Part shown: one piece after another, positions 1,603 through 29,759 of the stretch
Position numbering within the stretch: position 1 is the first letter of the stretch
Layout of the letters: every line of letters starts with the position of its first letter
Origin: Candidatus Omnitrophota bacterium
GTDB taxonomy: Bacteria; Omnitrophota; Gorgyraeia; JABMRN01; RBG-13-46-9
Reading direction: 5' to 3'
Length of the DNA: 64,000 nt
Assembly (NCBI GenBank): GCA_020346285.1
Contig: CP070780.1
Coordinates: forward strand, 1,113,021 to 1,177,020
Position numbers and translations under genes: made by a program
Notes under the pieces: generated by a model
Databases searched by the model: none
What the model was told of the DNA's origin: nothing
The model's input: only the letters and a program-made list of their open reading frames with translations

Positions 1603-3039
1603 TTATAATCCGATTATGGCAGAAAAGCCATCTATCTGTCCTTTTAATTGATGCAACGTCCTGATAGAGAAGAGCCTCTGCAGAATATAGCCCAATCTGA
1701 AATAAAATCTCCTGGTTGCCTTATCTAAAAAGTCAGAAAATTCGTTTTGTTTCATACCGGGATTAATATAATAAATTTGTTTATGGTCAAGTATTGTACT
1801 TTTTGAAAAATCAAAAACATGCCCTTCCCGGGTTAGTATTTCGTATAATTCCGTACCTGGCAGGGGTGTGAATTTGTTGAAGTGGGCGTAATCCAGTTTC
1901 ATATCAATCGCAAAGCGTAGAGTTTTCTCTAGGCTTTCCCATGTCTCGCCGGGGGTACCGACAATAAAATCCCCCCTTACTTCAAGTCCGGCTTCTTTCG
2001 TCAGGAGGACAGCCCTTTTATTCATTGCTACAGTATTACCTTTTTTGAGAAGTTTGAGCATTCTGTCATCACCCGACTCAAAGCCGTACAAAACCTGCCA
2101 GCACCCAGCCCGTTTCATATGGTTTAGAAGGGGGCTATCTACACACGCGCATTTTGTAAGGCAGGTCCAAGAAATCTTGAGGCGCCTTTTCTCGAATTCA
2201 TCGCAGATCTCGTGCACTCTTTTTTTATTCAGTGTAAACGTGTCGTCAAAAAATCTGATTTCCCTCACCCCGTATTTCGAGACGACGTCTTCGATTTCCC
2301 GGAAGATATTAGAGACGCTTCTCATTCTGCAAAGCTTGCCGAATATTTTCCTGTCGCAAAAAGTACATTGCGACGGACAACCGCGGCTTGTCATGATGAC
2401 GACATATGGTACCCTGCGGCAGGATGCCGGGGTCGGCTTGTAAAATTTGGGATGGGGCAACAGGTGCCTTGCCGGCATCGGTATCGAATCCAAATCTTCA
2501 ATAAAAGCCCGATCTTTATTCCGGTGGATGTTATCGCCGTCTTTATAGATAATTCCGTGAACCTTGTCTAAATTCTCAAACTTTCTGTTTTTATAGTTCT
2601 TAAAAAGCTCTTCAACGGTTGACTCACCTTCGCCGGTTATTCCTATGTCAAAGAGACCGGTTTGCATCGTTTCTTTAGGCAAAGCTGTTACGTGGGCGCC
2701 CCCGATCAGGATTTTTGTTGCCGGGAGCTTTTCTCGGATAAATTTAGCCAGCTTCTCGGCTTTTATGAATGCAGGGGTAGTAGAAGTGATGCCGATGACG
2801 TCGGGAGATGTTTTCAATACCACCTTAAAAAGATCGTCGAAGGGGATTCCTATCGCGCAGTCAATAAGCCTTACTTCTATGCCGATTTTTTCTAAGATCG
2901 CCGCGATGTACGCAATTCCGAGAGGCGGCACGATATTGATAACTTTTTTTACGCTCTTTGTTTTTCCGACAGACTCTTCCTCTTGCTCAAAAGGGGGATT
3001 GATCAGCAATACCTTCGGCATGATATTTATTTTACTCAT
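1603..3039 (-). CDS. B12-binding (class B) radical SAM protein
   Basis: 478 aa. The N-terminal Rossmann-like domain carries the cobalamin-domain motif (KILIGGAHVTALP, GG.H.T). It is followed by the radical SAM motif SRGCPSQCTFCD (Cx3Cx2C). Confidence 0.8.
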   Translation of the reverse strand: MSKINIMPKVLLINPPFEQEEESVGKTKSVKKVINIVPPLGIAYIAAILEKIGIEVRLIDCAIGIPFDDLFKVVLKTSPDVIGITSTTPAFIKAEKLAKFIREKLPATKILIGGAHVTALPKETMQTGLFDIGITGEGESTVEELFKNYKNRKFENLDKVHGIIYKDGDNIHRNKDRAFIEDLDSIPMPARHLLPHPKFYKPTPASCRRVPYVVIMTSRGCPSQCTFCDRKIFGKLCRMRSVSNIFREIEDVVSKYGVREIRFFDDTFTLNKKRVHEICDEFEKRRLKISWTCLTKCACVDSPLLNHMKRAGCWQVLYGFESGDDRMLKLLKKGNTVAMNKRAVLLTKEAGLEVRGDFIVGTPGETWESLEKTLRFAIDMKLDYAHFNKFTPLPGTELYEILTREGHVFDFSKSTILDHKQIYYINPGMKQNEFSDFLDKATRRFYFRLGYILQRLFSIRTLHQLKGQIDGFSAIIGL

Positions 3040-3775
3040 TCTGCCACGATATTAACAACCGAATGGTAGTGGCGATATATTTCCATCCGCGTTTACAATA
3101 GTCGCCAAGACTGGAGCCTGTCTTTGAATAGCCACCTCTTCTCGAAGCCCAGACATATGGGATTTCAACTACCCGATAGTTTAATTTTAGGACGCGATAA
3201 ATAAAATCGATAAAGTATTCACCATAATCACCCTTCAATTCAATCCTGTCAAAAATTTCTTTACGTGCCACTACAAAACCGCTGGTGTAATCCTTAAATC
3301 TATGGTCAAGGCAGATCTGCGTGAATAAATTCATGAGTCTACTTAATGCTACTGCTAAAGGAGTATTTGCGGGATCCGTTTTTTCGCCTATCCAATTACC
3401 TCCTAAAACAAACCGGGAGCCGACAGCCACGTCATGGCCCGCATTTATAAGGGACAAAAGTACGGGAAGATATTTCGGGGGCATTGAAAAATCACAGTCC
3501 ATCCAACCTATCGCGTCCCCCGAAGCCAACTCTATGCCCCTTTTTATGCTATTTGTCAAACCATGGCTTTCTTGCCTTACTTCAAGCTTCAAAAAGGGAT
3601 ATTTACCAGTTTTAATCATATTTTCAACAATACCAGCCGTGCCGTCAGGGGAATCGTCATCGACGACTATTATTTCATGCACGTCTTGCAGGGCGTCTTT
3701 TATGGCGTCTATTAAGGGGTGAATATTTTCGGCTTCATTTAATGCAGGCAGGATGACTGATAATCGTTTTTTCAT
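3032..3775 (-). CDS. GT2 glycosyltransferase, polyprenyl-phosphate sugar transferase type (DPM1/ArnC-like)
   Basis: 247 aa. LSVILPALNEAENI...IIVVDDDSPDGT is the GT-A DxD-region signature typical of dolichyl/undecaprenyl-phosphate hexose transferases. The start overlaps the DegT stop. Confidence 0.8.
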   Translation of the reverse strand: MKKRLSVILPALNEAENIHPLIDAIKDALQDVHEIIVVDDDSPDGTAGIVENMIKTGKYPFLKLEVRQESHGLTNSIKRGIELASGDAIGWMDCDFSMPPKYLPVLLSLINAGHDVAVGSRFVLGGNWIGEKTDPANTPLAVALSRLMNLFTQICLDHRFKDYTSGFVVARKEIFDRIELKGDYGEYFIDFIYRVLKLNYRVVEIPYVWASRRGGYSKTGSSLGDYCKRGWKYIATTIRLLISWQNE

Positions 3776-4977
3776 TGGAGCAATCCTTTTAATACATGAG
3801 AGACTTCTTTTATCTCGGTGTCTTTGATTGCCTGGCCGCTGGGAAGGTAAAAACCGCTTCTGGCGATTTTTTCCGTCACAGGGTAAGACTCGCCTTTAAA
3901 ATACCCATCCTTACGGAATAGAGGCTGCTCATGAATTCCGATAAAGAAAGGCCTTGTCTGAATGCCGCGTTCCGCCAATCTTTGCATTATTTTATATGAG
4001 GGCCAATTCTTGTGTTTCTCGGGAGTTATGTGAACCCAGCCTTTTTCAAAATATGATTGGTTTTTTTTATCTTCGTGAAGAAGAACGCTATACATCCAGA
4101 TGACATTTTTAGCCCACTTATGTTCTACAGGCAGCTGAAGAGATAAACCGTTCAGGCCTTCGGAATATTTTTTTGCCATATCGAGTTTACGTTCAATTGT
4201 TCTATCGAGGTGTTCCAATTGGGCGAGTCCGATAGCAGCCTGGATATTTGTCATCCGGTAATTATGGCCTAACTCATGATGTAAAAATCTCGGGGTTTTC
4301 AGAAAACAAAGGTTTCTATGCTTACGTAGACGCCGGACAATTGCCTCGTCAGAGGTTAAAACCATGCCTCCTTCACCGGTTGTTATATTTTTGTTGGCAT
4401 AGAACGAAAAGCATGAAAGCTCGCCGAAACTGCCGCATTTCCGCCAGTAGGCGGTTGCCCCATCCTTAGAGCCCTTGCAGGCATCTTTTTTTGCGGCCTT
4501 TGACGGCCTGGTGCTCAGATATTCCCCGCCATGCGCTTCGGCGGCATCCTCAATAATGATAAGGCCGTGTTTTTCCGCGATAGCTATTATGGGGTCCATA
4601 TCGCAAGGGTGCCCGTAAATATGCACGGGCATAATCGCGACTGTGCGTTCCGTAATTTTCTCTTCTATCTGGCCAACATCCATGCAGTAGGTTTCAGGAT
4701 TACAGTCAATGGGTACGGGCACACATCCATTTTTCACTATGGCCTGCGCGCAGGAAATAATAGTAAAGCTGGGTAAAATTATTTCACTTCCCTTGGGAAA
4801 ATTGCAGACCTCAACGGCCAATTCCAGTGCCACGGTTCCGTTCGAAACACCGACACCGTATTTCTGTCCGCAATACTGCGCCCATTCCGTTTCAAAACGC
4901 TCTAGATAATTGCCGGAAGAAGAAATCCAGCTTGTTTTAACGCAATCGGATACGTATTTTAGTTCATTTCCCGACAT
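3772..4977 (-). CDS. DegT/DnrJ/EryC1/StrS-family PLP-dependent sugar aminotransferase
   Basis: 401 aa. SGNELKYV..C.....SSSG.Y...FE..WA.Y.G.KYGVGVSNGTVALELAV; ...IEDAAEAHG...; GHNYRMTNIQAAIGLAQLEHLD. It contains an approximately 30-aa Lys-rich insertion. Confidence 0.85.
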   Translation of the reverse strand: MSGNELKYVSDCVKTSWISSSGNYLERFETEWAQYCGQKYGVGVSNGTVALELAVEVCNFPKGSEIILPSFTIISCAQAIVKNGCVPVPIDCNPETYCMDVGQIEEKITERTVAIMPVHIYGHPCDMDPIIAIAEKHGLIIIEDAAEAHGGEYLSTRPSKAAKKDACKGSKDGATAYWRKCGSFGELSCFSFYANKNITTGEGGMVLTSDEAIVRRLRKHRNLCFLKTPRFLHHELGHNYRMTNIQAAIGLAQLEHLDRTIERKLDMAKKYSEGLNGLSLQLPVEHKWAKNVIWMYSVLLHEDKKNQSYFEKGWVHITPEKHKNWPSYKIMQRLAERGIQTRPFFIGIHEQPLFRKDGYFKGESYPVTEKIARSGFYLPSGQAIKDTEIKEVSHVLKGLLQ

Positions 4978-5038
4978 TAAAGGTTCGTTTACGGGGATAA
5001 TATTTAGTCTCCCTTGTCCCGTTAGACACGAATAGTGT

Positions 5039-5476
5039 CTAACGGGGCTTAATTTTCCGTTTTGTTAAAGTAGACGAAAACCTCTCTTTTTCCTGAACAC
5101 CAATATACGGGCCTTGCTTTATCTCCAAGAATATACTGCGTTCATGGAAATGGAAACCGTGGCCCCCGGAAACAAGTATAAGGACATCGCCGGGAAAAAG
5201 TTCGCGGCTTTCTGTATAGTTCTTTTTCTGCGAATAAAAGTCGACGCGGACATGCCCGTTTCTAAGAATTAAAACCTCGGAGGTGCCTTTAATGTTGCGT
5301 GGCATTTCATGATGAATATGGGGTTCGATATCCTTATTCGCGTCGTAAACAATAAAACCCACCTGCTGTTTAAACGTTTCAGGCGTAATGAATTCCGTCT
5401 TCTCCGGATTGTAATTTGCCCTGATAATAAGGGCTAAGAGCTCGCCGTTATGTTCTATTTGCTCTTTTATGCCCAT
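5039..5476 (-). CDS. cupin-fold protein, possibly a WxcM/FdtA-like sugar 3,4-ketoisomerase
   Basis: 145 aa. It has a beta-rich sequence with His-containing cupin-like motifs (EPHIHHEMP..., GGHGFHFHE). Its position in a sugar-aminotransferase unit suggests a keto-sugar isomerase. The family assignment is weak. Confidence 0.35.
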   Translation of the reverse strand: MGIKEQIEHNGELLALIIRANYNPEKTEFITPETFKQQVGFIVYDANKDIEPHIHHEMPRNIKGTSEVLILRNGHVRVDFYSQKKNYTESRELFPGDVLILVSGGHGFHFHERSIFLEIKQGPYIGVQEKERFSSTLTKRKIKPR

Positions 5477-5533
5477 TATAAACCCCTATCTCGTGAACTC
5501 TTCTTAAGAGGAGATATCATACCTAAACCTTAT

Positions 5534-5562
5534 TTAATAACATAAAATAACGATTTAATCAA
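5534..5562 (-). promoter_or_regulatory. candidate sigma70-type promoter for the minus-strand unit (cupin/DegT/GT2/rSAM)
   Basis: On the minus strand this reads TTGATT-17nt-TATTAA (plus-strand AATCAA at 5557-5562 and TTAATA at 5534-5539). There is a GGGG Shine-Dalgarno about 7 nt before the ATG at 5476. Confidence 0.25.
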
Positions 5563-5641
5563 GCGAATTTTTAAGAATTCACTTGAAAAAAACCGGGAAA
5601 AAGAAAGGAAGTAGAAGCAATATTAAAATTTGCAATAATGA

Positions 5642-5670
5642 TTGACAACAGAAACATTGTATGCTATAGT
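5642..5670 (+). promoter_or_regulatory. near-consensus sigma70 promoter with extended -10, heading the long plus-strand gene array
   Basis: TTGACA (5642-5647), a 17-nt spacer, then TGcTATAGT (extended -10, 5662-5670). It lies about 90 nt upstream of the regulator start at 5759, which has a GAGGAG RBS. Confidence 0.5.
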
Positions 5671-5758
5671 TTGTTTAGAACGTTTTAAACGATGTGAATA
5701 TCTACAAACACGTAGAAAATTATGAGTGAAAAAGTGGAAAAAGAACGAGGAGAAAGTT

Positions 5759-6313
5759 ATGAGTGAAGAATTGGAAAAAGCCCAGGATATACTTTTGGGC
5801 AAGGTGAACCAACTATGCGCTAAATTCGGGCTCAATAATGTAATGGCCCAACTTTACATCGTACTATACTTACAGGGTAAGTCCATGTCGCTTGATGCCA
5901 TGGTTGAGCGGCTTAAGATTAGCAAGGGAAGCGTAAGCGTCAATATAAGGGCCCTTGAAAGATACGGTGCTGTAAGAAAAGTATGGGTTAAAGGCTCCAG
6001 GAAAGACTTTTATGAGGTAGAGACAGATATTTCCAGGCTAATAATAGAGAGAGTCAAGTCAATGATACAGGGTCGACTATCTGAAGTGAAGGAAGCGATA
6101 GATGCTTCGCATCGAGCGCTTAACTCCATTAAACCTGTAGATAAAGAAGAAAGGGAGTCTATAAAGGTATTTAACGAAAGGTTAAATCAGCTGAATAAAG
6201 TTCAGAACAAAGCCCGGGGCCTCTTTAATCTATTTAATTCGAGTTTTCTCAACAAAGCGATAGGCCTTAAAACCAAGAGAAATAATAAAGAAGAAATGGT
6301 TGAAATTCATTGA
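5759..6313 (+). CDS. GbsR/MarR-type winged-helix transcriptional regulator
   Basis: LGKVNQLCAKFGLNNVMAQLYIVLYLQGKSMSLDAMVERLKISKGSVSVNIRALERYGAVRKVW.KGSRKDFYE matches the GbsR-family wHTH core. I prefer the ATG at 5759 (GAGGAG RBS) over the upstream GTG at 5726. Confidence 0.65.
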   Translation: MSEELEKAQDILLGKVNQLCAKFGLNNVMAQLYIVLYLQGKSMSLDAMVERLKISKGSVSVNIRALERYGAVRKVWVKGSRKDFYEVETDISRLIIERVKSMIQGRLSEVKEAIDASHRALNSIKPVDKEERESIKVFNERLNQLNKVQNKARGLFNLFNSSFLNKAIGLKTKRNNKEEMVEIH

Positions 6314-7307
6314 AAAGATAGAATTTATGAAATTTACAATAGGTTTTGAGAAAGAAGATACGAAAAAACTCCATAAAATGTGGGATGAAATCATAAAAAC
6401 GCACAAATGGTCAGAAGGAAAGTTTACTCAAATGTTTGAGGAAAGATGGAATGCCTGTAACGATGCGGATTCCGTGGCCTTTTCAAGCTGGGGAGGTGCC
6501 GCATTGGCTGTGTTGGAGTTTTTTAATGTGAAGGGAAAAACAGTGCTTTGTCCCGCCAACACATTTATGGCCACGCCTCTCAGTATCATGAAAGCAGGGG
6601 GTAAGGTTCAATTTGTGGATTGCAATAAGAATGACCTTTGTATGAGCGCGGAAGATTTAAAAGAAAAAATAAATAAATATAATCCATTTGCCGTATTTAT
6701 AGTACATATTGGAGGGCATATAGCATTCCAGATAGAGGAAATAGCAAAATTATGCAAAGAAAAAGGCATTATATTGATTGAAGATTGCGCGCATAGCCAT
6801 GGCGCTTCCTGGAGGGGTCGAAAAGCGGGCACATGGGGGAATGCCGGTATATATTCTTTTTATTCCACAAAAACCATTTCCACAGGCGAAGGCGGCATGC
6901 TGGTTACCAGAAACAAGGATCTTCTAAATTACGCCAAAAAATACAGAAATTACGGAAAATTCGAATACGAAGTAGAGGGCTTAAATTACAGAATGAATGA
7001 GTTTACCGCAGCGGTCGGCTGCGTCCAGGTCAATAGATTGGATGAAATCGTTGATTGGAAAAATGCATACGCCAGAAAATATCTGGACCCCGAATATCCC
7101 AACAGAGTCAATTTTCCTGAAGGAATGAAATCCGGCTATTATAAGTATATCGTATTCGATGAAATTGAGAAATCCACGGGAAAGGTATACGATAAACCCT
7201 GCCATCGAATATTGAAAAAGAGCGATAGTCTGCCGAATACCGATTGGATCGCAAAGAATCATTGGTGTGTTCCCATTTATTACAAGGGTTCTTCTACGCC
7301 AAAGTAG
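6300..7307 (+). CDS. DegT/DnrJ/EryC1/StrS-family PLP-dependent aminotransferase (short N-terminus)
   Basis: 335 aa. IEDCAHSHGASWRGRKAGTWGNAGIYSFYSTKTISTGEGGMLVT...; EGLNYRMNEFTAAVGCVQVNRLDEIV. The N-terminal region is shorter than in typical approximately 380-aa homologues. Confidence 0.8.
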   Translation: MKFIEKIEFMKFTIGFEKEDTKKLHKMWDEIIKTHKWSEGKFTQMFEERWNACNDADSVAFSSWGGAALAVLEFFNVKGKTVLCPANTFMATPLSIMKAGGKVQFVDCNKNDLCMSAEDLKEKINKYNPFAVFIVHIGGHIAFQIEEIAKLCKEKGIILIEDCAHSHGASWRGRKAGTWGNAGIYSFYSTKTISTGEGGMLVTRNKDLLNYAKKYRNYGKFEYEVEGLNYRMNEFTAAVGCVQVNRLDEIVDWKNAYARKYLDPEYPNRVNFPEGMKSGYYKYIVFDEIEKSTGKVYDKPCHRILKKSDSLPNTDWIAKNHWCVPIYYKGSSTPK

Positions 7308-7312
7308 AATTT

Positions 7313-7372
7313 CACAGTAGCTGTGCTTCGAAGAATTCTACGAAGCATAGCATCAATGAAATTTCTACTGTG
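7313..7372 (+). promoter_or_regulatory. nested inverted repeat (potential stem-loop) in the largest intra-array intergenic gap
   Basis: Outer arms are CACAGTAG (7313-7320) and CTACTGTG (7365-7372). The inner imperfect palindrome GCTTCGAAGAATTCTACGAAGC (7325-7346) is centred on GAATTC. It lies in the 87-nt gap between 7307 and 7395. Confidence 0.3.
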
Positions 7373-7394
7373 GCGAAGTAGAAAGGGAGGAAAA

Positions 7395-8345
7395 GTGAAA
7401 GTACTGGTTACAGGCGGAAGCGGTTTTATTGGCTCTCATGTTGTAGAAAAATTGTTGGATAGAGGGATAAGGGTAAGGATTTATGACCTTATGTACCCCG
7501 ATTTTTTAGAAAGTCTCGCGGAGGGCAAAAGAAAAATGGTGGAATATTATCAGGGAAGCCTGCTGGAAGAAGACAGAATCAGACTGGCCCTATCAGGGAT
7601 GGATGCCATTTTTCACCTGGCCGCTGTAGCGGATGTGAATGATGTAGCAAGCGAACCCCGATACGCAGAAAATATAAACATGAAAGGGACTTTTAACATA
7701 CTTGAAGCGGCGCGCTTTACAAAGGTAAAAAGGGTTATTTTTGCAAGCACGGTCTGGGTGTACCAGGATACCCCGCAAGAAGAGAAAATCTTGACGGAAG
7801 ATTCTCCTATTTCGCTTCCTTCTCATTTTTATACCGCGACAAAATTTGCAGGGGAAGCAAATTGCACTTCTTATTCAAAACTTTTTAATGTCCCTTTTAC
7901 TATTTTAAGATTCGGTATCCCCTACGGGCCAAGAGCAAGGGGTACCACCGTCGGCGCGATTTTTGTGGATAAAGCCTTAAAGGGTGAACCACTTACTATT
8001 GCAGGAGACGGGAGCCAATATCGAAAATTTGTTTATGTAGAGGATCTGGCCGAGGGTTGCATATTGGCTTTAAAAAGTATCGCCAGAAATAAAATTTATA
8101 ATTTAGAAGGCGATAAGAAAATCACGATCAAACAAATAGCAGAGACCATAAAAGAGATATTGGGCGAGGCCAAGATTGTCTATATCGCAGACAGGAAAGG
8201 TGATTTTTCCGGAAAAGAGATTTCGAACGAAAAAGCAAAAAAAGAGTTAGGCTGGTATCCGCGAGTTTCTTTTAAAGAGGGTTTAACGGAATATATCGAA
8301 TGGTATAAGAGTGTTCTGAAAGATACCGCAGAAATAGAAATATAA
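7395..8345 (+). CDS. NAD-dependent sugar epimerase/dehydratase (extended SDR)
   Basis: GTG start after an AAGGGAGG RBS. MKVLVTGGSGFIGSHVVEKLLDRGIRVRIYDL is the GxxGxxG Rossmann motif. There is a catalytic YxxxK region (YTATKFAGE). Confidence 0.85.
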   Translation: MKVLVTGGSGFIGSHVVEKLLDRGIRVRIYDLMYPDFLESLAEGKRKMVEYYQGSLLEEDRIRLALSGMDAIFHLAAVADVNDVASEPRYAENINMKGTFNILEAARFTKVKRVIFASTVWVYQDTPQEEKILTEDSPISLPSHFYTATKFAGEANCTSYSKLFNVPFTILRFGIPYGPRARGTTVGAIFVDKALKGEPLTIAGDGSQYRKFVYVEDLAEGCILALKSIARNKIYNLEGDKKITIKQIAETIKEILGEAKIVYIADRKGDFSGKEISNEKAKKELGWYPRVSFKEGLTEYIEWYKSVLKDTAEIEI

Positions 8346-8348
8346 TTA

Positions 8349-9017
8349 ATGAAAAAAATTTTAATTATTGCCCCGCACATGGACGATGAAGTTCTTGGAT
8401 GCGGCGGCACGATATTAAGGTATACCGAAGAGAAGAAGGATGTCTTTATATGTTTTATAGCCAATAGAGCGTACCGTCACCGAATTGATAAAAATAAAAA
8501 CAGAATTCAGAAAAAACATACGCTTCTCGCAAAAAGGATTTTAGGCTATAAAGAAGCGGTATTTTATGAATTAAACGACGAACGGCTCGATATATCGGTT
8601 CAGGACATAATAATTTTGCTTGAATGCTATGTGAACAAGATACAGCCTGGCGCGGTGTACATCCCCTTTATGGGCGATAACAATCAGGACCATAGGGCAG
8701 TTTTTGATGCGGCAAGGGTTGCATTGAGGCCTGCCGCGACACCTTTTGTAAATAGTGTATATATGTATGAAATCCCGTCTTCAACAGAACAGTCACCCCC
8801 CTTAAAAGAAAGCGCATTTCTTCCAAATTACTATGTAGATATAACTAAGTACATTGACAAAAAGACGAAGGCCTTTAGCTCCTATAAAGACGAAAGACGA
8901 AAATATCCCCATCCCCGTTCCGAAAGGGCTATCAGGGCCCTGGCCCAGAAACGGGGTGTTGAAATAGGATTTAAATATGCGGAGGCCTTCATGGTTTTAA
9001 GGGAGAAAGCTCGATGA
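8349..9017 (+). CDS. PIG-L/LmbE-family N-deacetylase
   Basis: ILIIAPHMDDEVLGCGGTILRY is the hallmark (A/S)PHxDDE..G.GG motif of the LmbE/PIG-L family. Confidence 0.8.
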   Translation: MKKILIIAPHMDDEVLGCGGTILRYTEEKKDVFICFIANRAYRHRIDKNKNRIQKKHTLLAKRILGYKEAVFYELNDERLDISVQDIIILLECYVNKIQPGAVYIPFMGDNNQDHRAVFDAARVALRPAATPFVNSVYMYEIPSSTEQSPPLKESAFLPNYYVDITKYIDKKTKAFSSYKDERRKYPHPRSERAIRALAQKRGVEIGFKYAEAFMVLREKAR

Positions 9018-9655
9018 TACTCGGAATAACCCCGGCTCGCGGAGGAAGTAAAGGCATACCGAGGAAAAACATTAAAGAGATCGCCGGTAAGCCTTTAATC
9101 GCATGGACGATAGAAGCGGCGAAGTCGGCAAAATTACTCGATAGATATATTGTCTCTACGGAAGATACGGAGATCGCCCGAGTCTCGCGAAAATACGGGG
9201 CTGAAATATTAAAAAGGCCGGCATGCCTTGCAACTGATAAGGCCTCAACACTTGGCGTGCTCCAACATGCGGTTCGGCAAATTCCTTGTGATATTGTAGT
9301 GCTTCTTCAGGCTACGTCTGCAATAAGAAAATCCACCCTTATCGATGAGTGCATAAGGGAATTTATAGATAATAAATATGACTCCTTATCCACTGGTTTT
9401 ATGTGCAAATATGTGGAATATGCAAAGAACGAGCTTCGAAGGCAGGATATTAAAGGATTCTTTCATGATGATGGCAATGTCTATGTACTAAAAGCTGACC
9501 TTGTCAGAAAGGGAGACCGCTACGGTAGAAAGACCGGGAGGAAAATCGTAAGCCGGTGGGAGAACGTGGAGATAGACGATGAATTCGATTTTTGGCTAAC
9601 CGAGAAAATTCTGAAGGATAGTTATAAAGAAGTAATTAGAGAGATATGCGCGTAA
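9014..9655 (+). CDS. acylneuraminate (nonulosonate) cytidylyltransferase, CMP-NulO synthetase family
   Basis: ILGITPARGGSKGIPRKNIKEIAGKPLIAWTIEAAKSAKLLDRYIVSTEDTEIA matches the N-terminal signature of the CMP-NeuAc/CMP-Pse/CMP-Leg synthetases (CTP_transf_3). Confidence 0.8.
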   Translation: MILGITPARGGSKGIPRKNIKEIAGKPLIAWTIEAAKSAKLLDRYIVSTEDTEIARVSRKYGAEILKRPACLATDKASTLGVLQHAVRQIPCDIVVLLQATSAIRKSTLIDECIREFIDNKYDSLSTGFMCKYVEYAKNELRRQDIKGFFHDDGNVYVLKADLVRKGDRYGRKTGRKIVSRWENVEIDDEFDFWLTEKILKDSYKEVIREICA

Positions 9656-10365
9656 CGATACATCAACCGGAACATATGCCGTGGCCCGGATTTTTCCACA
9701 AGATAAACATGGCGGATACATATGTGGTTCTGGATAATGTTCAATATCGAAGGCGATATTTCCAAAATAGGAATAAGATCAGGACTGCGGATGGCTGGCA
9801 GTGGGTAACAGTTCCTTTAGAAAAAGAAACAAGGGATAGACTGTTAATAAAAGATGCCAGGATCTGGAAGGAAAATTTAAAATGGAAAAGCAAGAATCTC
9901 GAAAGCATTTATCACAACTACCGAAAAGCCGAATACTTTATATATTACTGGAATGGATTCGAGTCTATTTATAATAGAGATTATTTTTACCTGGCAGATT
10001 TCAATCTCGCTCTTTTGAAATTTTTCTTTGAAAAGCTGAAAATCAGGTGCGAAGTCCGGCGGGCTTCGGAAATGGATATTTCCGGCAGGAAGGGGGATTT
10101 GATATTTAATATCTGTAGAGCCTTAAAAGCAAAAAAATATATTTCCGGCATTTCCGGAAAGGAATATTTAAATCTAAAAGATTTTAAGAAAGTGGGGATA
10201 GGGGTAGTTTTTCAGGAATTTCACCACCCGGTTTACAAACAATTACATAAACCTTTTATTGCATGCATGTCTATAATTGACCTTTTATTTAATTACGGAG
10301 ATAGAAGCCTCAATATTATCAGGGGTAAGGGTGGTGTCCCCTTGATGGAAGAGGTAATCCTTTAA
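9646..10365 (+). CDS. WbqC-like family protein (O-antigen cluster associated; function unknown)
   Basis: MRVTIHQPEHMPWPGFFHKINMADTYVVLDNVQYRRRYFQNRNKIRT.DGWQWVTVPL matches the WbqC-like family N-terminal consensus. Confidence 0.75.
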   Translation: MRVTIHQPEHMPWPGFFHKINMADTYVVLDNVQYRRRYFQNRNKIRTADGWQWVTVPLEKETRDRLLIKDARIWKENLKWKSKNLESIYHNYRKAEYFIYYWNGFESIYNRDYFYLADFNLALLKFFFEKLKIRCEVRRASEMDISGRKGDLIFNICRALKAKKYISGISGKEYLNLKDFKKVGIGVVFQEFHHPVYKQLHKPFIACMSIIDLLFNYGDRSLNIIRGKGGVPLMEEVIL

Positions 10366-11241
10366 ATGGGGAAGACTATTATAATAGCGGAAATAGGCGA
10401 GTGTTTTAACGGAGATCTGGAGGTAGCAAAAAAACTAATGTTTGCAGCGAAGAACGCGGGGTGTGATATCGCAAAATTTCAAACACTTGACTATGAGAAT
10501 ATTCAGGAAAATGATCCGGAGTCGGATTGGTTTAAAAAAATTGCGCTTACCGTCGAGAAAATTAATCTCTTGATTAAATATGCCGATGAAACAGGCATAG
10601 ATATCCTCTTTTCGCCAGAAAATTTAAAGACTGCAAAGTGGTTAATAAGGTCAGGTTTGAAAGATGTTAAAATCGCAAGCAACACCATGCAAGATAAGGA
10701 ATTAATCAAGTTTATTAATTGCCATTTTGAACATGTTTTTATGTCAACTGGCATGGCTTTGCTTGAAGAGGTTAAGGATGCTGTGGATAGCTTAAACAAA
10801 GTTAGCGAGCTATATATAATGCATTGTGTTTCCGAGTATCCGACAGGGCCCCTTTTAGAAAAGAGAGGCCTTAAGGCATTATCCCATGATGATGTGAGGC
10901 TTAATATGATGAAAATGCTTATGGAAGAGTTTCCGCGGTACAAGATAGGATATTCGGACCATACGCAAGGGATACTCGCGCCTCTAGCAGCGGTGGCCAT
11001 GGGCGCAAAGGTAATCGAAAAACATATCACCCTTGACAGAAAGACACCTATCGAAAACTTCTTAAAAGGCAAGGAATATCTCGGAACGGACCATATTCTT
11101 TCAATAGAGCCGGATGAACTGAAGGAGATGGTAAGAAGAATACGGGAGATGGAGAGGATGTTCGGCACTAATAAATGGGAACGTTCCGAAGGCGAATATA
11201 TGTTAAGGAATTTTTTGAGAGGACGGTTTGCAAGTAAATAA
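10366..11241 (+). CDS. NeuB-family nonulosonic acid synthase, TIM-barrel catalytic domain only (no SAF/antifreeze-like domain)
   Basis: TIIIAEIGECFNGDLEVAKKLMFAAKNAGCDIAKFQT is the NeuB N-terminal signature. It is only 291 aa and the next gene overlaps its 3' end, so there is no room for the approximately 70-aa C-terminal SAF domain. Confidence 0.75.
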   Translation: MGKTIIIAEIGECFNGDLEVAKKLMFAAKNAGCDIAKFQTLDYENIQENDPESDWFKKIALTVEKINLLIKYADETGIDILFSPENLKTAKWLIRSGLKDVKIASNTMQDKELIKFINCHFEHVFMSTGMALLEEVKDAVDSLNKVSELYIMHCVSEYPTGPLLEKRGLKALSHDDVRLNMMKMLMEEFPRYKIGYSDHTQGILAPLAAVAMGAKVIEKHITLDRKTPIENFLKGKEYLGTDHILSIEPDELKEMVRRIREMERMFGTNKWERSEGEYMLRNFLRGRFASK

Positions 11242-12217
11242 AGTTAAGGTTTTATTCAAAACCAAAGGCGGGCATAAAGAGGGGATGGGGGATATTACCT
11301 CTTCTTTAGCACTGGCGGAGGCATTTAGAGATCAAGGCCATGAAGCAATGTTTATTGTCAATGATAACAAGAGTGCTATAGAGTTAATTTCTCAAAAAGG
11401 TTTCAAATATAAAATGGCCGAGACTCAAACAGAATTAGCGACATCGGTCGGCAAGGAGCCAATAGATATAGCGATTTTAAATCAGTTAAATACGCCCACC
11501 GACGAAACGCAAATCTTCAAGGCTAATTCCAAGATGCTCGTTACAATTGATGATACAGGGGATAGTGCTGAATTAGCCGATATCTCTTTTAACGTTCTTT
11601 ACCCCATAGAAAGCGCTTATGTTGACTTTAAGTACATTGCACTTTTTCCAGTATTCCAGGAGAAACATAATATTTCACGGGTGATAAAAAAAGAGGTGGA
11701 AACAATACTTGTTACCCAGGGAGGAAGCGATACTTATGGTTATACGCCGAAGATCATAAAAGGGTTATACAAAGTGACTCCCGGAATAGTCATAAACGTG
11801 GTACTCGGGCCAAACTTTTCTCACCACCTGCACCTTAAACAAATTCTGGAGGATGCACCGCGGAGTTTTAATATTATAAAAGGAAAAAACGATCTGTCGA
11901 ATTTAATGCTGCAAGCCGACATGGCTATAAGCGGAGGAGGTAATATATTGTTTGAACTGGCGTGTCTTGGCGTTCCGACCATCGTTATATGCGGCGAACG
12001 TTTCGAAGAAAAAACAGCCAAGAGATTACAAGGAGAAGGTTTTGGCATAAATTTGGGTTTCGGAAAATATGTTAAGGAAAAAGATATATGCGGTGCGGTA
12101 ACCGAGCTCATGAATGACACAAAAAAACGCAGGCAAATGAGCGCGAAAGGCATGGATCTTATTGACGGATACGGCGCGACAAGGGTTGCGGAATTAATAA
12201 TAAGACAATTGTTATGA
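11228..12217 (+). CDS. PseG/SpsG-like UDP-sugar hydrolase (GT-B-like)
   Basis: The N-terminus KVLFKTKGGHKEGMGDITSSLALAE.F resembles the G.GH..R...LA motif of PseG. A central ILVTQGGSD motif and a C-terminal ISGGGNILFELACLGVPTIVI are also PseG-like. Confidence 0.55.
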   Translation: MQVNKVKVLFKTKGGHKEGMGDITSSLALAEAFRDQGHEAMFIVNDNKSAIELISQKGFKYKMAETQTELATSVGKEPIDIAILNQLNTPTDETQIFKANSKMLVTIDDTGDSAELADISFNVLYPIESAYVDFKYIALFPVFQEKHNISRVIKKEVETILVTQGGSDTYGYTPKIIKGLYKVTPGIVINVVLGPNFSHHLHLKQILEDAPRSFNIIKGKNDLSNLMLQADMAISGGGNILFELACLGVPTIVICGERFEEKTAKRLQGEGFGINLGFGKYVKEKDICGAVTELMNDTKKRRQMSAKGMDLIDGYGATRVAELIIRQLL

Positions 12218-13275
12218 GGATAAATAAGGACCAGTTTAGTTTTTCAAAACGGAAAAATCTTATTTTTTCTTATAAAAGAGGATATGGGGCAATACCGGCG
12301 TACATTGTCAATCGTTTTCAGTGGTATTTTTATCCGAAATTGCATTACGTTTCTAAGTTTCCGATTCACCTGGATGTCGAAATTTCCAATGAATGTAACA
12401 TGCAATGCCCGATGTGCTTTAGGACCACGGAATTTTTTAAAAAGAACATAGAAAAGGGTTTCATGGAATTTTCTTTATTTAAAAAAGTAGTCAACGAAGC
12501 TCGGCGTTATGGTATTTATTCGATAAGAATAAGCCACAGGGGGGAGGCTTTTATTCACCCCAATGTTATAGAGTTTATCAGATATGCCAAGCGTTCCGGG
12601 ATTAAGGAAGTCGCTGCTCTCAGCAATATCTTGGCGCTTCCGCCTTTGCTTTTTGAAGAGGCAATGAAAGCAGGCCTGGACTGGCTCACTATTTCATTTG
12701 ACGGATTGGGCCCGACTTATGAGAAGATTAGACGCCCGGCGAAATTCAAAGATTCTTACGAGAAGGTGAAAGCATATAAGCGAATAAAAGAGAAAGCCCA
12801 TTCACATAAACCCGTTATAAAGATTCAAAGTGTATGGCCAGCCGTTAGAACCTGCGCAGAAGAATTTATCGAGAGTTTTGAACCGTATGTTGACGGCATA
12901 GCTTCTAATCCGTTGATTGACTATTTGCATAAAGACCACCCCCAAGACATAGAGTACTGGGAGAATTTTGATTGCCCTACTCCATATCAAAGATTAACAA
13001 TTCTTTTTAACGGCTTGGTACCATATTGCCACAACGATGAATTTTGTACATATATTATAGGCGATATCAAAAAAGACACAATTCGTAACGTATGGCATGG
13101 TCCGGACATGACAAAAGTAAGAAAAGCTCACAGGGCGTGTCAGGGGAGGACTGTCTTAAGCGCATGTAAACATTGTTTTTTACCCCGCAAGGCCGAGCCG
13201 GTTATAGAACATATAGGCGATAGAAAATTGGTTGTGGAGAAATACACGAAAAGAACACAAAAAATCGGTGCTTGA
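12214..13275 (+). CDS. radical SAM protein with C-terminal SPASM/twitch-like Cys-rich domain
   Basis: FPIHLDVEISNECNMQCPMC is a Cx3Cx2C radical SAM motif. The C-terminus has additional Cys clusters (CPTP...YCHND...C...CQGRTVLSACKHC). Confidence 0.8.
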   Translation: MRINKDQFSFSKRKNLIFSYKRGYGAIPAYIVNRFQWYFYPKLHYVSKFPIHLDVEISNECNMQCPMCFRTTEFFKKNIEKGFMEFSLFKKVVNEARRYGIYSIRISHRGEAFIHPNVIEFIRYAKRSGIKEVAALSNILALPPLLFEEAMKAGLDWLTISFDGLGPTYEKIRRPAKFKDSYEKVKAYKRIKEKAHSHKPVIKIQSVWPAVRTCAEEFIESFEPYVDGIASNPLIDYLHKDHPQDIEYWENFDCPTPYQRLTILFNGLVPYCHNDEFCTYIIGDIKKDTIRNVWHGPDMTKVRKAHRACQGRTVLSACKHCFLPRKAEPVIEHIGDRKLVVEKYTKRTQKIGA

Positions 13276-13290
13276 TTGATAGGATATAAA

Positions 13291-14973
13291 ATGAAAAGAT
13301 TTGTGAAGACCACCGGCCAAATGGCGGAAGCGAGGGATTATTGCTGGGAGGTTTATGAGACGGTACTTGCGCAATTATCCGAAAGGCTGAATTCTATCCA
13401 CAATGTTTCCTATCCTGCCAGGTATTGGGCAATTCTTATGGGTTCCTGGCTTTTACACTTTATCGAGGTGCTCTATGATAGATACAAAAGAATAGAAAAA
13501 ACCTTAGAGCTTTTCCCGGATTTTTACACCAGCGCACTCCCGGAGGAAAAGTGTTCGCTTGTATCTTCCGATACGTATGATTTTTTAGTCAGAAAAGTAT
13601 CACGTAACAATTATTATAACCTCAAGTTATTCAGCATGGTAGTGCGCAAGTTGTGTCCCCAACATGTGAGAGATAGGGATGTTACGCCGAAAGTCGAGAC
13701 CGGACCCAAAACACTTTCCTTTAAGCATAGCCTGAAAAGAGAAATATTTTATAAACTTCTCCGACTATTCGATATCTTTATAAAGAATCCCATAGTTTTA
13801 AGCGATATGTATCATTTGGACCCTATGGATATTCTGGCGCTGAAATTTAAGAGTTTGAAGACACTGGTTTTTATGGATTTCGAGCCATTGCTGGACTATG
13901 ATGTTTCAAAGAATTGCTATTCCGACAGCATGAGAAAGAAACTGAAATTGGGGGAAAGTAGTGATAGATTTCAATCATTGCTTTATAAGGTCATTCCCGA
14001 CGCGATACCCACATGCTATCTGGAGAATTACAGAATATACAAAGACAGTATCGGCCGCGCCAAAAACACGATGCCTATAAGTGCAATAGGGTCTGCCATA
14101 GGTTGGTTTTTTAATGAAAGGTTCAAGTTTTTTGCCGCAGAAGCGTCATTAAAAGGAACTCTCCTTATAGAGTTTCAACGCGGAGGCAACTTCGGTTATG
14201 CCGCTGTTCTCTCACATGAGGCAATGACTTTACTGGAAAAAGATATTTTTTACACGTGGGGATGGACCTCGGAAATAAATAACAAAACAAAACCTCTGCC
14301 GTCTCCACACCTTTCTAAATTGAGAGATACCCATTCAACAAAACTCGATAACGTTTTATTTATAGGTGTAGTTATGTCCCGATATCACTATAGATTTCAA
14401 AGCGCGCTCCTATCCGATGATATGCCTGGCTATTTTGAAGACAAGAAGATATTTTTCCAGGCCCTGTCAGAAGAAATTAAAAATAAGGTCCTATACCGCC
14501 CTTATGTAGATGACCGTGGATGGGGGGAGTTGGATAAAGTAAAAAAAGTATGCCCTAAAGCAAAATTTATATCAAAGGGCAAAGCTATAAAATGGATGCA
14601 GAGAGTAAAGTTGGTGGTTATAGACCATCCGCACACAAGCTTTCTTGAGGCCTTGGCTATTAATGTCCCTTGCGTTTTTTATTGGAAACACGATGTTTAT
14701 TCTATACGCCCGGAAGCAGAGAGGTATTTCGAGCTGTTAAGAGATGCCGGCATTGTTTTTAAGGATCCGTTAAGCGCCGCCGAGAAGGTTAAAGAGATAT
14801 TCAATGACCCGATGAATTGGTGGCAGAGTGACGGCGTTCAAAAAGCCCGCTTCGAATTTTGTAAACGATTTGCTTACGCCGAAAAGAATTGGCTAAAGAT
14901 ATGGACAGAAGAATTAAAAAAATTTCATGTAGACATATCCAAGAAAACAAAAGATGCAAAAGCACATTGTTAA
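13291..14973 (+). CDS. large hypothetical protein, TagF-like/CMP-sugar-transferase-like C-terminal domain (putative surface-carbohydrate transferase)
   Basis: About 560 aa. The C-terminal VKLVVIDHPHTSFLEALAINVPCVFYW resembles the donor-binding segment of TagF/capsule transferases and carries an HP dipeptide, as in sialyltransferase HP motifs. It is a paralogue of the ORFs at 19363 and 51158. I prefer the ATG at 13291. Confidence 0.35.
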   Translation: MKRFVKTTGQMAEARDYCWEVYETVLAQLSERLNSIHNVSYPARYWAILMGSWLLHFIEVLYDRYKRIEKTLELFPDFYTSALPEEKCSLVSSDTYDFLVRKVSRNNYYNLKLFSMVVRKLCPQHVRDRDVTPKVETGPKTLSFKHSLKREIFYKLLRLFDIFIKNPIVLSDMYHLDPMDILALKFKSLKTLVFMDFEPLLDYDVSKNCYSDSMRKKLKLGESSDRFQSLLYKVIPDAIPTCYLENYRIYKDSIGRAKNTMPISAIGSAIGWFFNERFKFFAAEASLKGTLLIEFQRGGNFGYAAVLSHEAMTLLEKDIFYTWGWTSEINNKTKPLPSPHLSKLRDTHSTKLDNVLFIGVVMSRYHYRFQSALLSDDMPGYFEDKKIFFQALSEEIKNKVLYRPYVDDRGWGELDKVKKVCPKAKFISKGKAIKWMQRVKLVVIDHPHTSFLEALAINVPCVFYWKHDVYSIRPEAERYFELLRDAGIVFKDPLSAAEKVKEIFNDPMNWWQSDGVQKARFEFCKRFAYAEKNWLKIWTEELKKFHVDISKKTKDAKAHC

Positions 14974-15014
14974 TAATAAAAAAAACTACATTGCAATATT
15001 CGGGAATATAAACC

Positions 15015-15989
15015 ATGTTTTTTAAAAACCCTGATTCAAAAAGGGAGAATCCTTTTAGAAAGCTGTATGACAACAAAGAATTTAAGACAATTCACCAGCG
15101 CAAAGATAAATTGCCGGATTTTCCATTTTTAGTCGATGTCGAACTCACCAATCACTGCAATTTGAAATGTATTTTTTGCGGGCAGCAAGCTATGAAAAGG
15201 GACAAGGGTTTTATGTCCGAAACAACTTTAAAGAAAATTGTAGACGAATGCGCGGGACATAATACGCCTATCAGATTTATTCGGCTCGGCGAACCATTTT
15301 TGCATCCGAAGATAACGGATTTCTGTAAATATGTGAAATCCAAGGGGCTTATCCTTCATATTACAAGCAATGGCTTGGCGATAACAGGAAATCATATGAA
15401 CTACCTGATCGAACTCGGAGTTGATTCGCTTATTTTTTCATTACAGGGAGCCACAAAAGAACAATACGAGGCGATGAGGGGGGACAATACCTATGACAGA
15501 TTAAGAGGGAATGTTTTAAAAATGGTGGAACTGAGGAAAGATAGAGAAAATCCTTTTATCCATATATCCAGCACTATGACCGATGAATCAAAAAAAGAAA
15601 TAGACAATTTCGTCAATTATTGGGGGTATCTTATTGACGCAGTTAGTATCGGAAAGACAAATCTCTCGCTCTTATCAGCGGCCCAGATAAATTCTTTTAA
15701 GGCTATCGGTAAACTCGAATTGTTGAAGAAACAGGAAACGATCAAAAAAGAGTATCGGTTGTGTACGGAGGTCTACCAGAAATTGAGTATTGACTGGGAC
15801 GGAAAGGTTACCTGTTGCTGCGGGGATTTCGATAATTTTTTGACAGTCGGCGACCTGGGCCGTTCGACACTTTTTGATATTTGGAATAGTAGCAAGGAAT
15901 TAAGAATTTTCAGAGAATTACTTGAAAAAAACATGCATAAATGTCTGACATTATGCAGCACTTGTTACCACGCATATGACGAATTTTAA
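15015..15989 (+). CDS. radical SAM protein with SPASM-like Cys-rich C-terminal domain
   Basis: FPFLVDVELTNHCNLKCIFCGQ is a radical SAM motif. The C-terminus reads C...VTCCCGDF...C..LCSTCYHAY. Its N-terminal motif is a paralogue of those at 12214 and 46280. Confidence 0.8.
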   Translation: MFFKNPDSKRENPFRKLYDNKEFKTIHQRKDKLPDFPFLVDVELTNHCNLKCIFCGQQAMKRDKGFMSETTLKKIVDECAGHNTPIRFIRLGEPFLHPKITDFCKYVKSKGLILHITSNGLAITGNHMNYLIELGVDSLIFSLQGATKEQYEAMRGDNTYDRLRGNVLKMVELRKDRENPFIHISSTMTDESKKEIDNFVNYWGYLIDAVSIGKTNLSLLSAAQINSFKAIGKLELLKKQETIKKEYRLCTEVYQKLSIDWDGKVTCCCGDFDNFLTVGDLGRSTLFDIWNSSKELRIFRELLEKNMHKCLTLCSTCYHAYDEF

Positions 15990-16005
15990 TTATGGAGTTT
16001 AACCG

Positions 16006-18130: not shown

Positions 18131-18194
18131 TAGCCGAAGCCGGCATAATCAAAAAGAGTTTTTATGATATAGATTTTAATCTTGGGAGACAGTA

Positions 18195-22549: not shown

Positions 22550-22590
22550 AAAGCAGAGATTTTTAATTGAAAAATTGGAGGGAAAAGTAT

Positions 22591-25762: not shown

Positions 25763-25779
25763 TAAAAAAATCGAGGGAC

Positions 25780-29072: not shown

Positions 29073-29759
29073 ATGCGAGAATTTAATGCGTTAAAGGGTT
29101 ATCCGCAACCGAAAGGGCCGCGTTATGTCGGAGCTGACATCAGAACAATTAAGAGCAGAATTATAGCTTCGTATCGCGATGAACGGTATTATGACGGAGA
29201 CCGCAACCACGGTTATGGAGGGTTTAAATATGACGGCCGATGGAAGAAAATAGCACAATCAATGTTTAAGGATTATGGGTTAACCGAGAACTCGGCCTTA
29301 CTCCAGATAGGGTGTGAAAAAGGGTTTCTCCTGCATGATTTTCATGAGCATTTCCCGAATATGAAAATTAGAGGAGCCGAAATGTCCGATTACGCTATTT
29401 CGCATTCCATGCCGTCGGTAAAAAAATGGATTGTAAAGATGGACAATTATACCAAGCTTCCCTTCGAAAGCGGAGAATTTGATTTTGTCATTGCTATAGG
29501 GGTAGTTTATGCCTTAACCTTAAGGGATGCTATATCTTGTCTTCGCGAAATTCAGAGAGTAGGAAAGGGCAAAAGCTTTATAACCCTGGGCGCTTATAAA
29601 GACGAACGGGGAGAAAAGCTTTTTAAGAGTTGGACGGTATTAGGTGCCACCATACTTCATGTAAATGAGTGGCCCGAGGTTTTAAAGGAAGCCCGTTACA
29701 CGGGCGATTATCACTTTATGACCGACGAATATCTAAATTTGGCAGAGAAAAACGGATGA
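29073..29759 (+). CDS. class I SAM-dependent methyltransferase
   Basis: Motif I is LLQIGCEKGFLLHDF. Motif II-like is EFDFVIAIGVVYAL. I prefer the ATG at 29073 after a GAGGGGG RBS. Confidence 0.7.
   Translation: MREFNALKGYPQPKGPRYVGADIRTIKSRIIASYRDERYYDGDRNHGYGGFKYDGRWKKIAQSMFKDYGLTENSALLQIGCEKGFLLHDFHEHFPNMKIRGAEMSDYAISHSMPSVKKWIVKMDNYTKLPFESGEFDFVIAIGVVYALTLRDAISCLREIQRVGKGKSFITLGAYKDERGEKLFKSWTVLGATILHVNEWPEVLKEARYTGDYHFMTDEYLNLAEKNG

Follow-up and report, generated by a model that had tools for sequence, protein, structure and literature searches.

In the biosynthesis of bacillithiol and mycothiol, a deacetylase of the PIG-L/LmbE family (BshB or MshB) is paired with a Rossmann/HUP-fold enzyme (BshC or MshC) that acylates the freed sugar amine. 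A comparable pair occurs on a 64,000-nucleotide stretch of the genome of a Candidatus Omnitrophota bacterium (GenBank contig CP070780.1, positions 1,113,021 to 1,177,020; hereafter the window), where a PIG-L protein and a WbqC-family protein are encoded among genes that appear to specify a nonulosonic, or sialic-acid-like, acid. The context differs, being that of a thiol cofactor in bacillithiol and mycothiol and of a glycan sugar in the module described here. The proteins also differ, as BshC has 540 amino acids (aa) with a coiled-coil dimerisation domain, whereas WbqC consists of the core domain only and has no detectable sequence similarity to it. Two pathways to nonulosonic acids provide further points of comparison. 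Ca. Kuenenia stuttgartiensis is reported in a 2026 preprint to contain nonulosonates linked to cytidine monophosphate (CMP) that carry one free and one formylated amine, attributed there to a cluster that holds a deacetylase between legB/legC/legF-like and neuB/legF/legG-like genes together with a formyltransferase (bioRxiv 10.64898/2026.04.20.719630). By the preprint's description, that cluster is like the module in its embedded deacetylase and its non-acetylated amine; a formyltransferase is named there, whereas WbqC, loss of the SAF domain and radical S-adenosylmethionine (SAM) genes are not mentioned. The sps pathway to legionaminic acid in Bacillus subtilis (SpsC/D/E/F/G/M; PMC7439481) shares with the module a DegT aminotransferase, a NeuB synthase, a CTP_transf_3 cytidylyltransferase and a PseG-like GT-B protein, but its SpsM is a genuine 4,6-dehydratase, its synthase (SpsE) bears SAF and it includes an acetyltransferase (SpsD), whereas PIG-L, WbqC and radical SAM enzymes are absent.

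The module begins with seven plus-strand genes that overlap or abut and together span 6300-12217 (Table 1). Their order, coordinates and families, as assigned by Pfam and NCBIfam profile searches, agree with an earlier reading of the window made without database searches (the sequence-only reading), apart from the start codon of the short-chain dehydrogenase/reductase (SDR) and its designation as PseB. The module extends further, to 14973, with a radical SAM/SPASM gene and a gene for a LIC12162-family transferase. A scan of species-representative genomes, with counts made by homology to the window proteins and by all-against-all clustering, yielded 24 related loci from at least eight phyla, comprising Nitrospirota, Omnitrophota, Planctomycetota/anammox, Syntrophobacterales, a Desulfovibrio isolate, Acidobacteriota, SAR202, a Hydrothermarchaeota archaeon and Firmicutes (Lachnospiraceae/Selenomonadaceae). 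The neighbourhoods of homologues in Nitrospirae and Syntrophobacterales hold the same gene set, and among the anammox relatives with the module (L008-L010), the metagenome-assembled genome of L010 includes WbqC. The gene set is far beyond chance, recurring in 24 independent loci. On balance we favor the view that 6300-14973 is a single functional unit, one copy of a conserved and self-contained pathway. We likewise consider it somewhat more probable than its contrary that this unit makes and transfers a CMP-activated nonulosonic acid bearing an N-substituent other than acetyl. No description of the module was found in the literature searched, nor anything linking radical SAM enzymes or a PIG-L deacetylase to nonulosonic acids, or BshC to WbqC; the search on LIC12162 returned nothing relevant, only an unrelated genome paper. 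To the known routes to nonulosonic acids the module adds a variant distinguished by its insertion-bearing synthase, by the combination of PIG-L with a BshC-like WbqC and by the alternation of an SDR with a radical SAM protein.

The deacetylase and WbqC

The best NCBIfam match of the PIG-L protein is BshB1 (57 bits, full length), and its matches in the PDB are diacetylchitobiose deacetylase and BshB (6p2t). Its gene keeps company with that of WbqC; 15 loci hold both and 8 hold neither, the single exception lying on a truncated contig (Fisher p 1e-5, for loci that are not phylogenetically independent). By sequence, WbqC is without a relative in the PDB, and a search relaxed to E 10 matched it to no further Pfam family. 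A confident AlphaFold model, computed with 30 homologues (pLDDT, the predicted local distance difference test, 93.7; pTM, the predicted template modelling score, 0.90), is nearest in fold to BshC and then to class I aminoacyl-tRNA synthetases, with MshC also matched and HUP-fold nucleotidyltransferases at ranks 26-34. Foldseek independently places BshC first, with a probability of 0.95 and an E-value of 0.02. WbqC is thus predicted, from its modelled fold, to share a structural core with BshC/MshC-type ligases and class I synthetases. By analogy with these ligases, we propose that WbqC may be an adenylate-forming, ATP-dependent enzyme that acylates a sugar amine. We further propose that deacetylation would be followed by ATP-dependent re-acylation, probably aminoacylation.

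A second member of the WbqC family (PF08889) offers a useful comparison, in that the WbqC of Escherichia coli O121 (WP_000560507.1) is likewise associated with a DegT aminotransferase, whose gene it directly follows, and with a sugar that carries an N-aminoacyl group. According to a passage of PMC3210612 that cites Parolis 1997, the O121 polysaccharide contains 4-amino-4,6-dideoxyglucose (Qui4N) acylated with N-acetylglycine. The O-antigen cluster of O121:H19 reads tviB, epimerase, rfbB, rfbA, DegT aminotransferase, WbqC, GNAT, wzx, GT2, serine-acetyltransferase-like gene, wzy, asnB, GT4, GT4. Within it, the gene for WbqC is preceded by that for the Qui4N aminotransferase and followed by that for a 140-aa GNAT, and the reading frames overlap (NZ_CP022407, 379932-382160; L031:6932-9160). 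Since every other gene of this cluster has an obvious role, WbqC is the sole candidate for the addition of glycine, with the GNAT then acetylating it, and the arrangement fits glycyl ligation followed by N-acetylation. The O121 system nevertheless differs from the module in that it belongs to a dTDP-Qui4N pathway, has no deacetylase and places a GNAT after WbqC, which is only 24% identical to its counterpart in the window. It is a tentative proposal, to which we give less than even weight, that WbqC represents a previously unrecognized class of small BshC-like ATP-dependent ligases by which the amines of sugars are joined to an amino acid or another carboxylate; with PIG-L, such an enzyme would here convert an N-acetyl into an N-aminoacyl group, and the same class would explain the glycyl group of O121.

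The Pfam and NCBIfam searches found no GNAT or LbH acetyltransferase in the module. No PseH- or LegH-like protein is encoded by any open reading frame (ORF) of 150 aa or longer in the window, and the sole acyltransferase-type match in this set is a FemAB/Acetyltransf_6-like ORF at 56422. The sequence-only reading had noted the lack of a PseH-type N-acetyltransferase, which these searches bear out, and had suggested, from this lack in combination with the added deacetylase and WbqC, an N-acyl group other than acetyl or a free amine. That suggestion gains support from the co-occurrence of PIG-L with WbqC, the resemblance of WbqC to BshC and the Ca. Kuenenia preprint, a precedent that at the same time lowers its novelty.

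The synthase and its partner enzymes

The NeuB-like synthase passes the gathering threshold of PF03102, and its stop codon is overlapped by 14 nt by the start of the PseG-like gene, which initiates at TTG 11228 behind a GAGAGGA ribosome-binding site. In agreement with the sequence-only reading, the 291-aa protein has no match to the SAF domain (PF08666) and stops at the linker that joins barrel and SAF in canonical enzymes. No SAF remnant was found in any frame, additional in-frame stops follow the stop codon of NeuB, and tblastn of 5000-16000 with three SAF sequences returned only noise (best E 0.13) for a stand-alone or relocated domain. The at least 120 best homologues, at 64-75% identity and from independent assemblies, all have 288-313 aa and PF03102 only. 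In an alignment of 23 members of this short family, more than 90 columns are invariant, including the C-terminal tail residues W271, R273, E277, L280, F283, R287 and F288. The match of the next ORF to the PseG model begins at its residue 7, and its N-terminus is complete. A frameshift near 11228-11241 that would restore a longer NeuB, which the earlier reading had raised against itself, is refuted by the constant length of the homologues, the lack of any SAF remnant and the complete N-terminus of the following protein; with the invariant tail, these also rule out decay of the gene. The absence of SAF is natural and ancestral in a compact, strongly conserved NeuB subfamily.

Loss of SAF as such is not new. 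About 30% of 13,941 NeuB-family sequences lack the domain, in whole branches of environmental organisms (PMC8208679), and a SAF-less NeuB chain of 290 residues has been crystallized (6ncs), so the rarity implied by the earlier reading cannot be upheld, and the insertion-bearing synthase is a further member of a documented phenomenon. When the sequence library was clustered at 50% identity, the short family collapsed to 2-3 representatives. The next relatives, with 268-277 aa and 39-47% identity, likewise have no SAF but show AEIGENH, the canonical motif, and 40 of the best 150 cluster representatives have 230-300 aa.

The catalytic core of the short synthase is conserved. H199, H220, E9, E218, K37, K102, S105, S127 and S197 are invariant in the 23 members and align, in the same order, with H215, H236, E25, E234, K53, K129, S132, S154 and S213 of the Neisseria meningitidis enzyme (NmNeuB); Q39, Y158 and D242 are also kept, with NmNeuB Q55, Y186 and D247 among the retained residues. 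The metal ligands (for Mn, NmNeuB H215 and H236) and the residues that bind phosphoenolpyruvate (PEP) and the aldose are thus retained. In comparison with the NeuB, LegI and PseI synthases (NmNeuB 1xuu; Campylobacter jejuni PseI 8h2c), and in NmNeuB numbering, the short synthase has no SAF domain and hence no R314. An invariant C13F14 takes the place of N29H30, and an invariant Glu that of F112; there is no conservation at E134, and the N74 loop has been lost by deletion. The short synthase also contains two family-specific insertions, one of 12 residues (~160-171) directly after Y158-P-T and one of 11 residues (~226-236) before G-T-D242-H, neither of which occurs in 6ncs or in canonical enzymes. 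In the AlphaFold model, the first insertion has low confidence (pLDDT 55-73) and the second forms a helix. F283 of the tail aligns with NmNeuB F288. We infer from these features that the insertions and the C-terminal tail may assume the capping role of SAF. 6ncs differs from the short synthase in retaining AE-G-NH, the canonical motif, and in being acidic at position 134; the short synthase is no nearer to it by sequence (79.6 bits) than to PseI or NeuB (78.4 and 75 bits). Against the model for N-acetylneuraminate/legionaminate synthase (TIGR03569), it scores 205.5 bits, under the equivalog cut-off of 399.65, and against the PseI model (TIGR03586) a lower 148.3 bits, under a cut-off of 340.25.

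The PseC, PseF, PseI and PseG equivalog scores of the module proteins all lie under the NCBIfam cut-offs, and the SDR fares no better as PseB. Its start is probably GTG 7395 and not GTG 7323, given a GGGAGG ribosome-binding site upstream and agreement with the N-termini of all orthologues. It reaches 48 bits on the PseB model (TIGR03589, cut-off 408), and its best PDB match is the Thermotoga maritima UDP-glucose 4-epimerase 4zrm (154 bits). Its catalytic strand reads ASTVWVY, as (A/G)ST-x-WVY in all nine orthologues, with YTATK also present, where dehydratases carry STDEVY and the LegB at 16006 carries STSEVY. Identity of the SDR as a 4,6-dehydratase of PseB, LegB or RmlB type is rejected on its low model score, its GalE-like character and its lack of the Asp/Glu acid/base pair. 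The label "Pse-type" given by the sequence-only reading must be dropped as well, considering that the synthase scores higher as NeuB/LegI (205 bits) than as PseI (148 bits) and that the place of SpsG in the B. subtilis legionaminic acid pathway (PMC7439481) means PseG-like enzymes are not restricted to pseudaminic acid (Pse) stereochemistry.

Orthologues of the SDR, at 58-64% identity, occur in nine other loci (10 in all). Ten loci instead have, next to the short DegT, a fusion protein of ~575 aa that joins CTP_transf_3 (65 bits), radical SAM and SPASM domains (for example L004:4174-5892 and L012:8201-9970, with 8 other loci). SDR and fusion are mutually exclusive (10 vs 10 loci, Fisher p 0.001), an alternation that looks as if, at one step tied to transamination, one enzyme had been replaced by a non-orthologous other. 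Epimerization is one possibility for this step and oxidation to give a ketone another, and the CTP_transf_3 domain within the fusion is suggestive of a substrate linked to CMP. The DegT protein has the Lys of the S-T-K...GEGG motif and scores 151 bits as PseC (TIGR03588, cut-off 423) and 146 bits as LegC (TIGR04181, cut-off 420); its best PDB match is KdnA, the Kdo8N transaminase (5k8b, 104.7 bits), only 4 bits above nucleotide diphosphate (NDP)-sugar aminotransferases. KdnA aminates an oxidized ulosonic acid.

The cytidylyltransferase falls short of the PseF equivalog cut-off of 206 with its 121 bits, but in the PDB it matches CMP-Neu5Ac synthetases at 77-89 bits against 29 bits for KdsB. By these sequence scores it is closer to NeuA/PseF than to KdsB and so probably of the CMP-nonulosonate type. 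The PseG-like protein scores 104 bits on TIGR03590 (cut-off 153), with residues 7-255 covered. It has no sequence match to the solved PseG structures in the PDB, where its C-terminal domain alone matched GT1 enzymes. Most members of the PseG-like family have a G-x-GH motif; in the window protein and six relatives the motif is GMGD, and a His that lies three residues before it is conserved (compared among L006 and L011-L021). Orthologues of the radical SAM/SPASM enzyme occur at 53-66% identity in L004, L006, L007, L010 and L011, and we propose sugar oxidation or epimerization as its step. The LIC12162-family protein is proposed as candidate transferase for the CMP-activated product.

Proposed pathway and alternatives

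In the pathway that we propose, a keto group would be generated by the GalE-like SDR (or, in other lineages, the fusion) and/or by the radical SAM/SPASM enzyme, and DegT would introduce an amine at that group. PIG-L would remove the N-acetyl group derived from the N-acetylhexosamine (HexNAc), and WbqC would ligate an amino acid or other carboxylate to the free sugar amine, as in the BshB+BshC and MshB+MshC pairs. The PseG-like GT-B enzyme would hydrolyze a nucleotide-HexNAc derivative to the free sugar and thereby feed the short NeuB, which would condense it with PEP, its insertions and invariant tail (W271, R273, F283, R287, F288) standing in for the capping and partner-subunit role of SAF. 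The NeuA-like enzyme would then form the CMP-sugar, and the LIC12162-family protein would transfer it. Amination, deacetylation and re-acylation could take place at the level of the hexose or of the CMP-nonulosonate, in either order relative to hydrolysis, condensation and CMP activation.

Several observations weigh against this pathway, each reaction step of which is inferred. The PseG-like protein of the window subgroup has Asp at the position of the PseG catalytic His, and the SDR is without dehydratase residues, leaving the source of a keto-substrate for DegT unaccounted for. The Firmicutes versions have neither PIG-L nor WbqC, which makes this pair an accessory sub-module and not part of the core. 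The likeness of WbqC to BshC is structural only, with no sequence link found by HMMER and a Foldseek E-value of just 0.02, and to our knowledge the ligase activity of BshC itself has apparently never been reconstituted in vitro. The low identity between the WbqC proteins of the window and of O121 also means that the acyl donor in the window cannot be named. Finally, the module may be fed by the true LegB/LegC pair encoded a short way downstream of it (16006-18130), and the claim that it is self-contained would then be blurred.

Among alternatives to the proposed sequence of steps, the one to which we give most weight, while still judging it less probable than not, is that amination comes late: an ordinary HexNAc would serve as substrate of the synthase, and only afterwards would the SDR or fusion, with DegT, act on the CMP-nonulosonate in the manner of KdnB/KdnA in Kdo8N synthesis. 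The fusion that replaces the SDR in 10 loci always adjoins DegT and has an N-terminal CTP_transf_3 domain, suggestive of a CMP-linked substrate; KdnA is the best PDB match of DegT, and the SDR is not a dehydratase. However, the lead of KdnA over the NDP-sugar aminotransferases is slight, the best NCBIfam matches of DegT are the PseC and LegC models, and GalE-like extended SDRs are known to act on NDP-sugars, not on CMP-ulosonates. We find it rather unlikely that the product keeps a free amine, in which case PIG-L would deacetylate without re-acylation of that nitrogen and WbqC would perform nucleotidyl transfer or acylate the DegT-derived amine. This would accord with the detection of CMP-nonulosonates with one free amine from a deacetylase-containing cluster (bioRxiv 10.64898/2026.04.20.719630) and with the presence of the module itself in the anammox locus L010. 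The HUP fold includes plain nucleotidyltransferases. With no acetyltransferase in the module to act on the amine introduced by DegT, WbqC might act there instead.

Two further alternatives concern the synthase. It is improbable that PEP is condensed with a pentose or heptose to give a C8 or higher-carbon ulosonic acid instead of a nine-carbon acid. The altered active site (deletion of the N74 loop, an invariant Glu for F112, loss of E134 and absence of R314) would be compatible with such a substrate, but the cytidylyltransferase is NeuA/PseF-like and not KdsB-like, the presence of PIG-L and of a PseG-like partner implies that the substrate derives from HexNAc, and the module has no heptose genes. 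Least probable by far is that the short NeuB is a product of frameshift or decay, or is active only with a SAF domain borrowed from the paralogue at 59058, as the sequence-only reading had considered by way of complementation. Canonical NeuB depends on R314 and F288 from the C-terminal region of the partner subunit (PMC7591256), and a SAF-bearing paralogue is indeed present in the window. Yet, beyond the constant length, invariant columns and missing SAF remnant described above, a second NeuB occurs within 10 kb in only 1/24 other loci, the two paralogues share 36% identity (Table 1), the nearest outgroup clusters are SAF-less, and 6ncs was crystallized without SAF.

The wider glycan cluster

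The module, with its probable CMP-activated nonulosonic acid product, heads a co-directional glycan supercluster of ~58 kb (Table 1). A second, canonical legionaminic-type gene set is spread over 40 kb of it (16006-19271, 47272-48018 and 59058-61234) and consists of LegB, LegC, a CBS + nucleotidyltransferase protein, CTP_transf_3, NeuB+SAF and NeuC. A FemAB/Acetyltransf_6-like protein is encoded beside a short DegT-like ORF, a methyltransferase and the canonical NeuB and NeuC, and aminoacyl-tRNA-dependent acylation of the second sugar by this protein is possible. The supercluster also encodes a 738-aa fusion of a pyruvate-kinase barrel with PUA-like and ATP sulfurylase domains, near two sulfotransferase-like genes, which together suggest a sulfated glycan and an unusual PEP/ATP-linked activation of sulfate. 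Ten radical SAM genes belong to the glycan cluster, of which five encode B12-binding proteins and most of the rest SPASM proteins, and the related loci are similarly rich in such genes. Two acetolactate-synthase-like thiamine pyrophosphate (TPP) enzymes, an E1 alpha/beta pair, a split transketolase and a class I/II aminotransferase may together supply a side chain of an unusual kind, derived from a keto acid or an amino acid. Also found together are three families whose first definition came from O-antigen regions of Leptospira, namely LIC12162 (TIGR04331), the TIGR04372 glycosyltransferase and TIGR04326, the last scoring just below its cut-off. On the minus strand, a divergent LegC-like DegT lies beside a 145-aa ORF without a Pfam or NCBIfam match, a homologue of which also stands beside a DegT in L019.

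Table 1. Features of the window, with profile matches and, for module genes, occurrence in related loci
Feature	Position	Strand	Match or detail	Loci
Short DegT-family pyridoxal phosphate-dependent aminotransferase, 335 aa	6300-7307	+	PF01041 218 bits	22/24
GalE-like extended SDR, 316 aa from GTG 7395	7395-8345 (ORF callable from 7323)	+		
PIG-L/LmbE-family zinc N-deacetylase	8349-9017	+	PF02585 67.8 bits, cut-off 28.2; APHMDDE motif	15/24
Putative CMP-nonulosonate synthetase, NeuA/PseF type	9014-9655	+	PF02348 87.5 bits; PseF model 121 bits	16-17 (60-76% identity); other CTP_transf_3 family in 7
WbqC-family protein, 239 aa	9646-10365	+	PF08889 242.6 bits, full length, cut-off 21.3	16
NeuB-family PEP-condensing synthase, 291 aa, without SAF	10366-11241	+	NeuB domain only, 188 bits	
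PseG/SpsG-like GT-B protein	11228-12217	+	TIGR03590 104 bits	24/25, adjoining short NeuB
Radical SAM/SPASM enzyme	12214-13275	+	PF04055, PF13186	17 (~350 aa)
LIC12162-family transferase	13276-14973	+	TIGR04331 390.7 bits, cut-off 225	9-10, downstream of module
LegB	16006		472 bits	
LegC	16997		431 bits	
CBS + nucleotidyltransferase	18195			
CTP_transf_3	47272-48018			
NeuB+SAF paralogue	59058-60062		TIGR03569 506 bits; 36% identical to short NeuB	
NeuC	60059			
Divergent LegC-like DegT and 145-aa ORF	3772-5476	-	284 bits (DegT)	
Radical SAM genes of the glycan cluster	1603-3039 (-), 12214, 15015, 21161, 37302, 38376, 41265, 46280, 49656, 54952			
Sulfotransferase-like genes	22567-23562, 61256-62494			
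738-aa fusion ORF	23546-25762		Pyruvate-kinase barrel + PUA-like + ATP sulfurylase	
TPP-enzyme, E1 alpha/beta, transketolase and aminotransferase group	25684-27519, 29669-31799, 32631-33848, 33832-35520, 35541-37300			
TIGR04372 glycosyltransferase	43285-44505			
TIGR04326 protein	51158-53128		243 bits, cut-off 250	
FemAB/Acetyltransf_6-like protein	56422-57423			
Short DegT-like ORF	57427-58359			

The N-substituents of sialic-acid-like sugars set charge and antigenicity, and these sugars shape the recognition of cell surfaces by phages, immune systems and neighboring cells. The module is widespread in uncultured anaerobes (Omnitrophota, Nitrospirota and anammox bacteria) and in gut Lachnospiraceae. 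Its short NeuB represents a natural experiment on the purpose of the SAF domain, and the apparent swap, at the same pathway position, of a nicotinamide adenine dinucleotide (NAD)-dependent SDR for a cytidylyltransferase-radical SAM fusion is a further feature of interest. The analysis also provides a candidate function for the WbqC family, which is present too in the O-antigen cluster of O121, a major serogroup of Shiga-toxin E. coli. The tentative reading of WbqC as a ligase goes together with a synthase that would be able to accept a substrate lacking the canonical acetamido group. Should the ligase prediction hold, it would supply a missing enzyme class for N-aminoacylated amino sugars.

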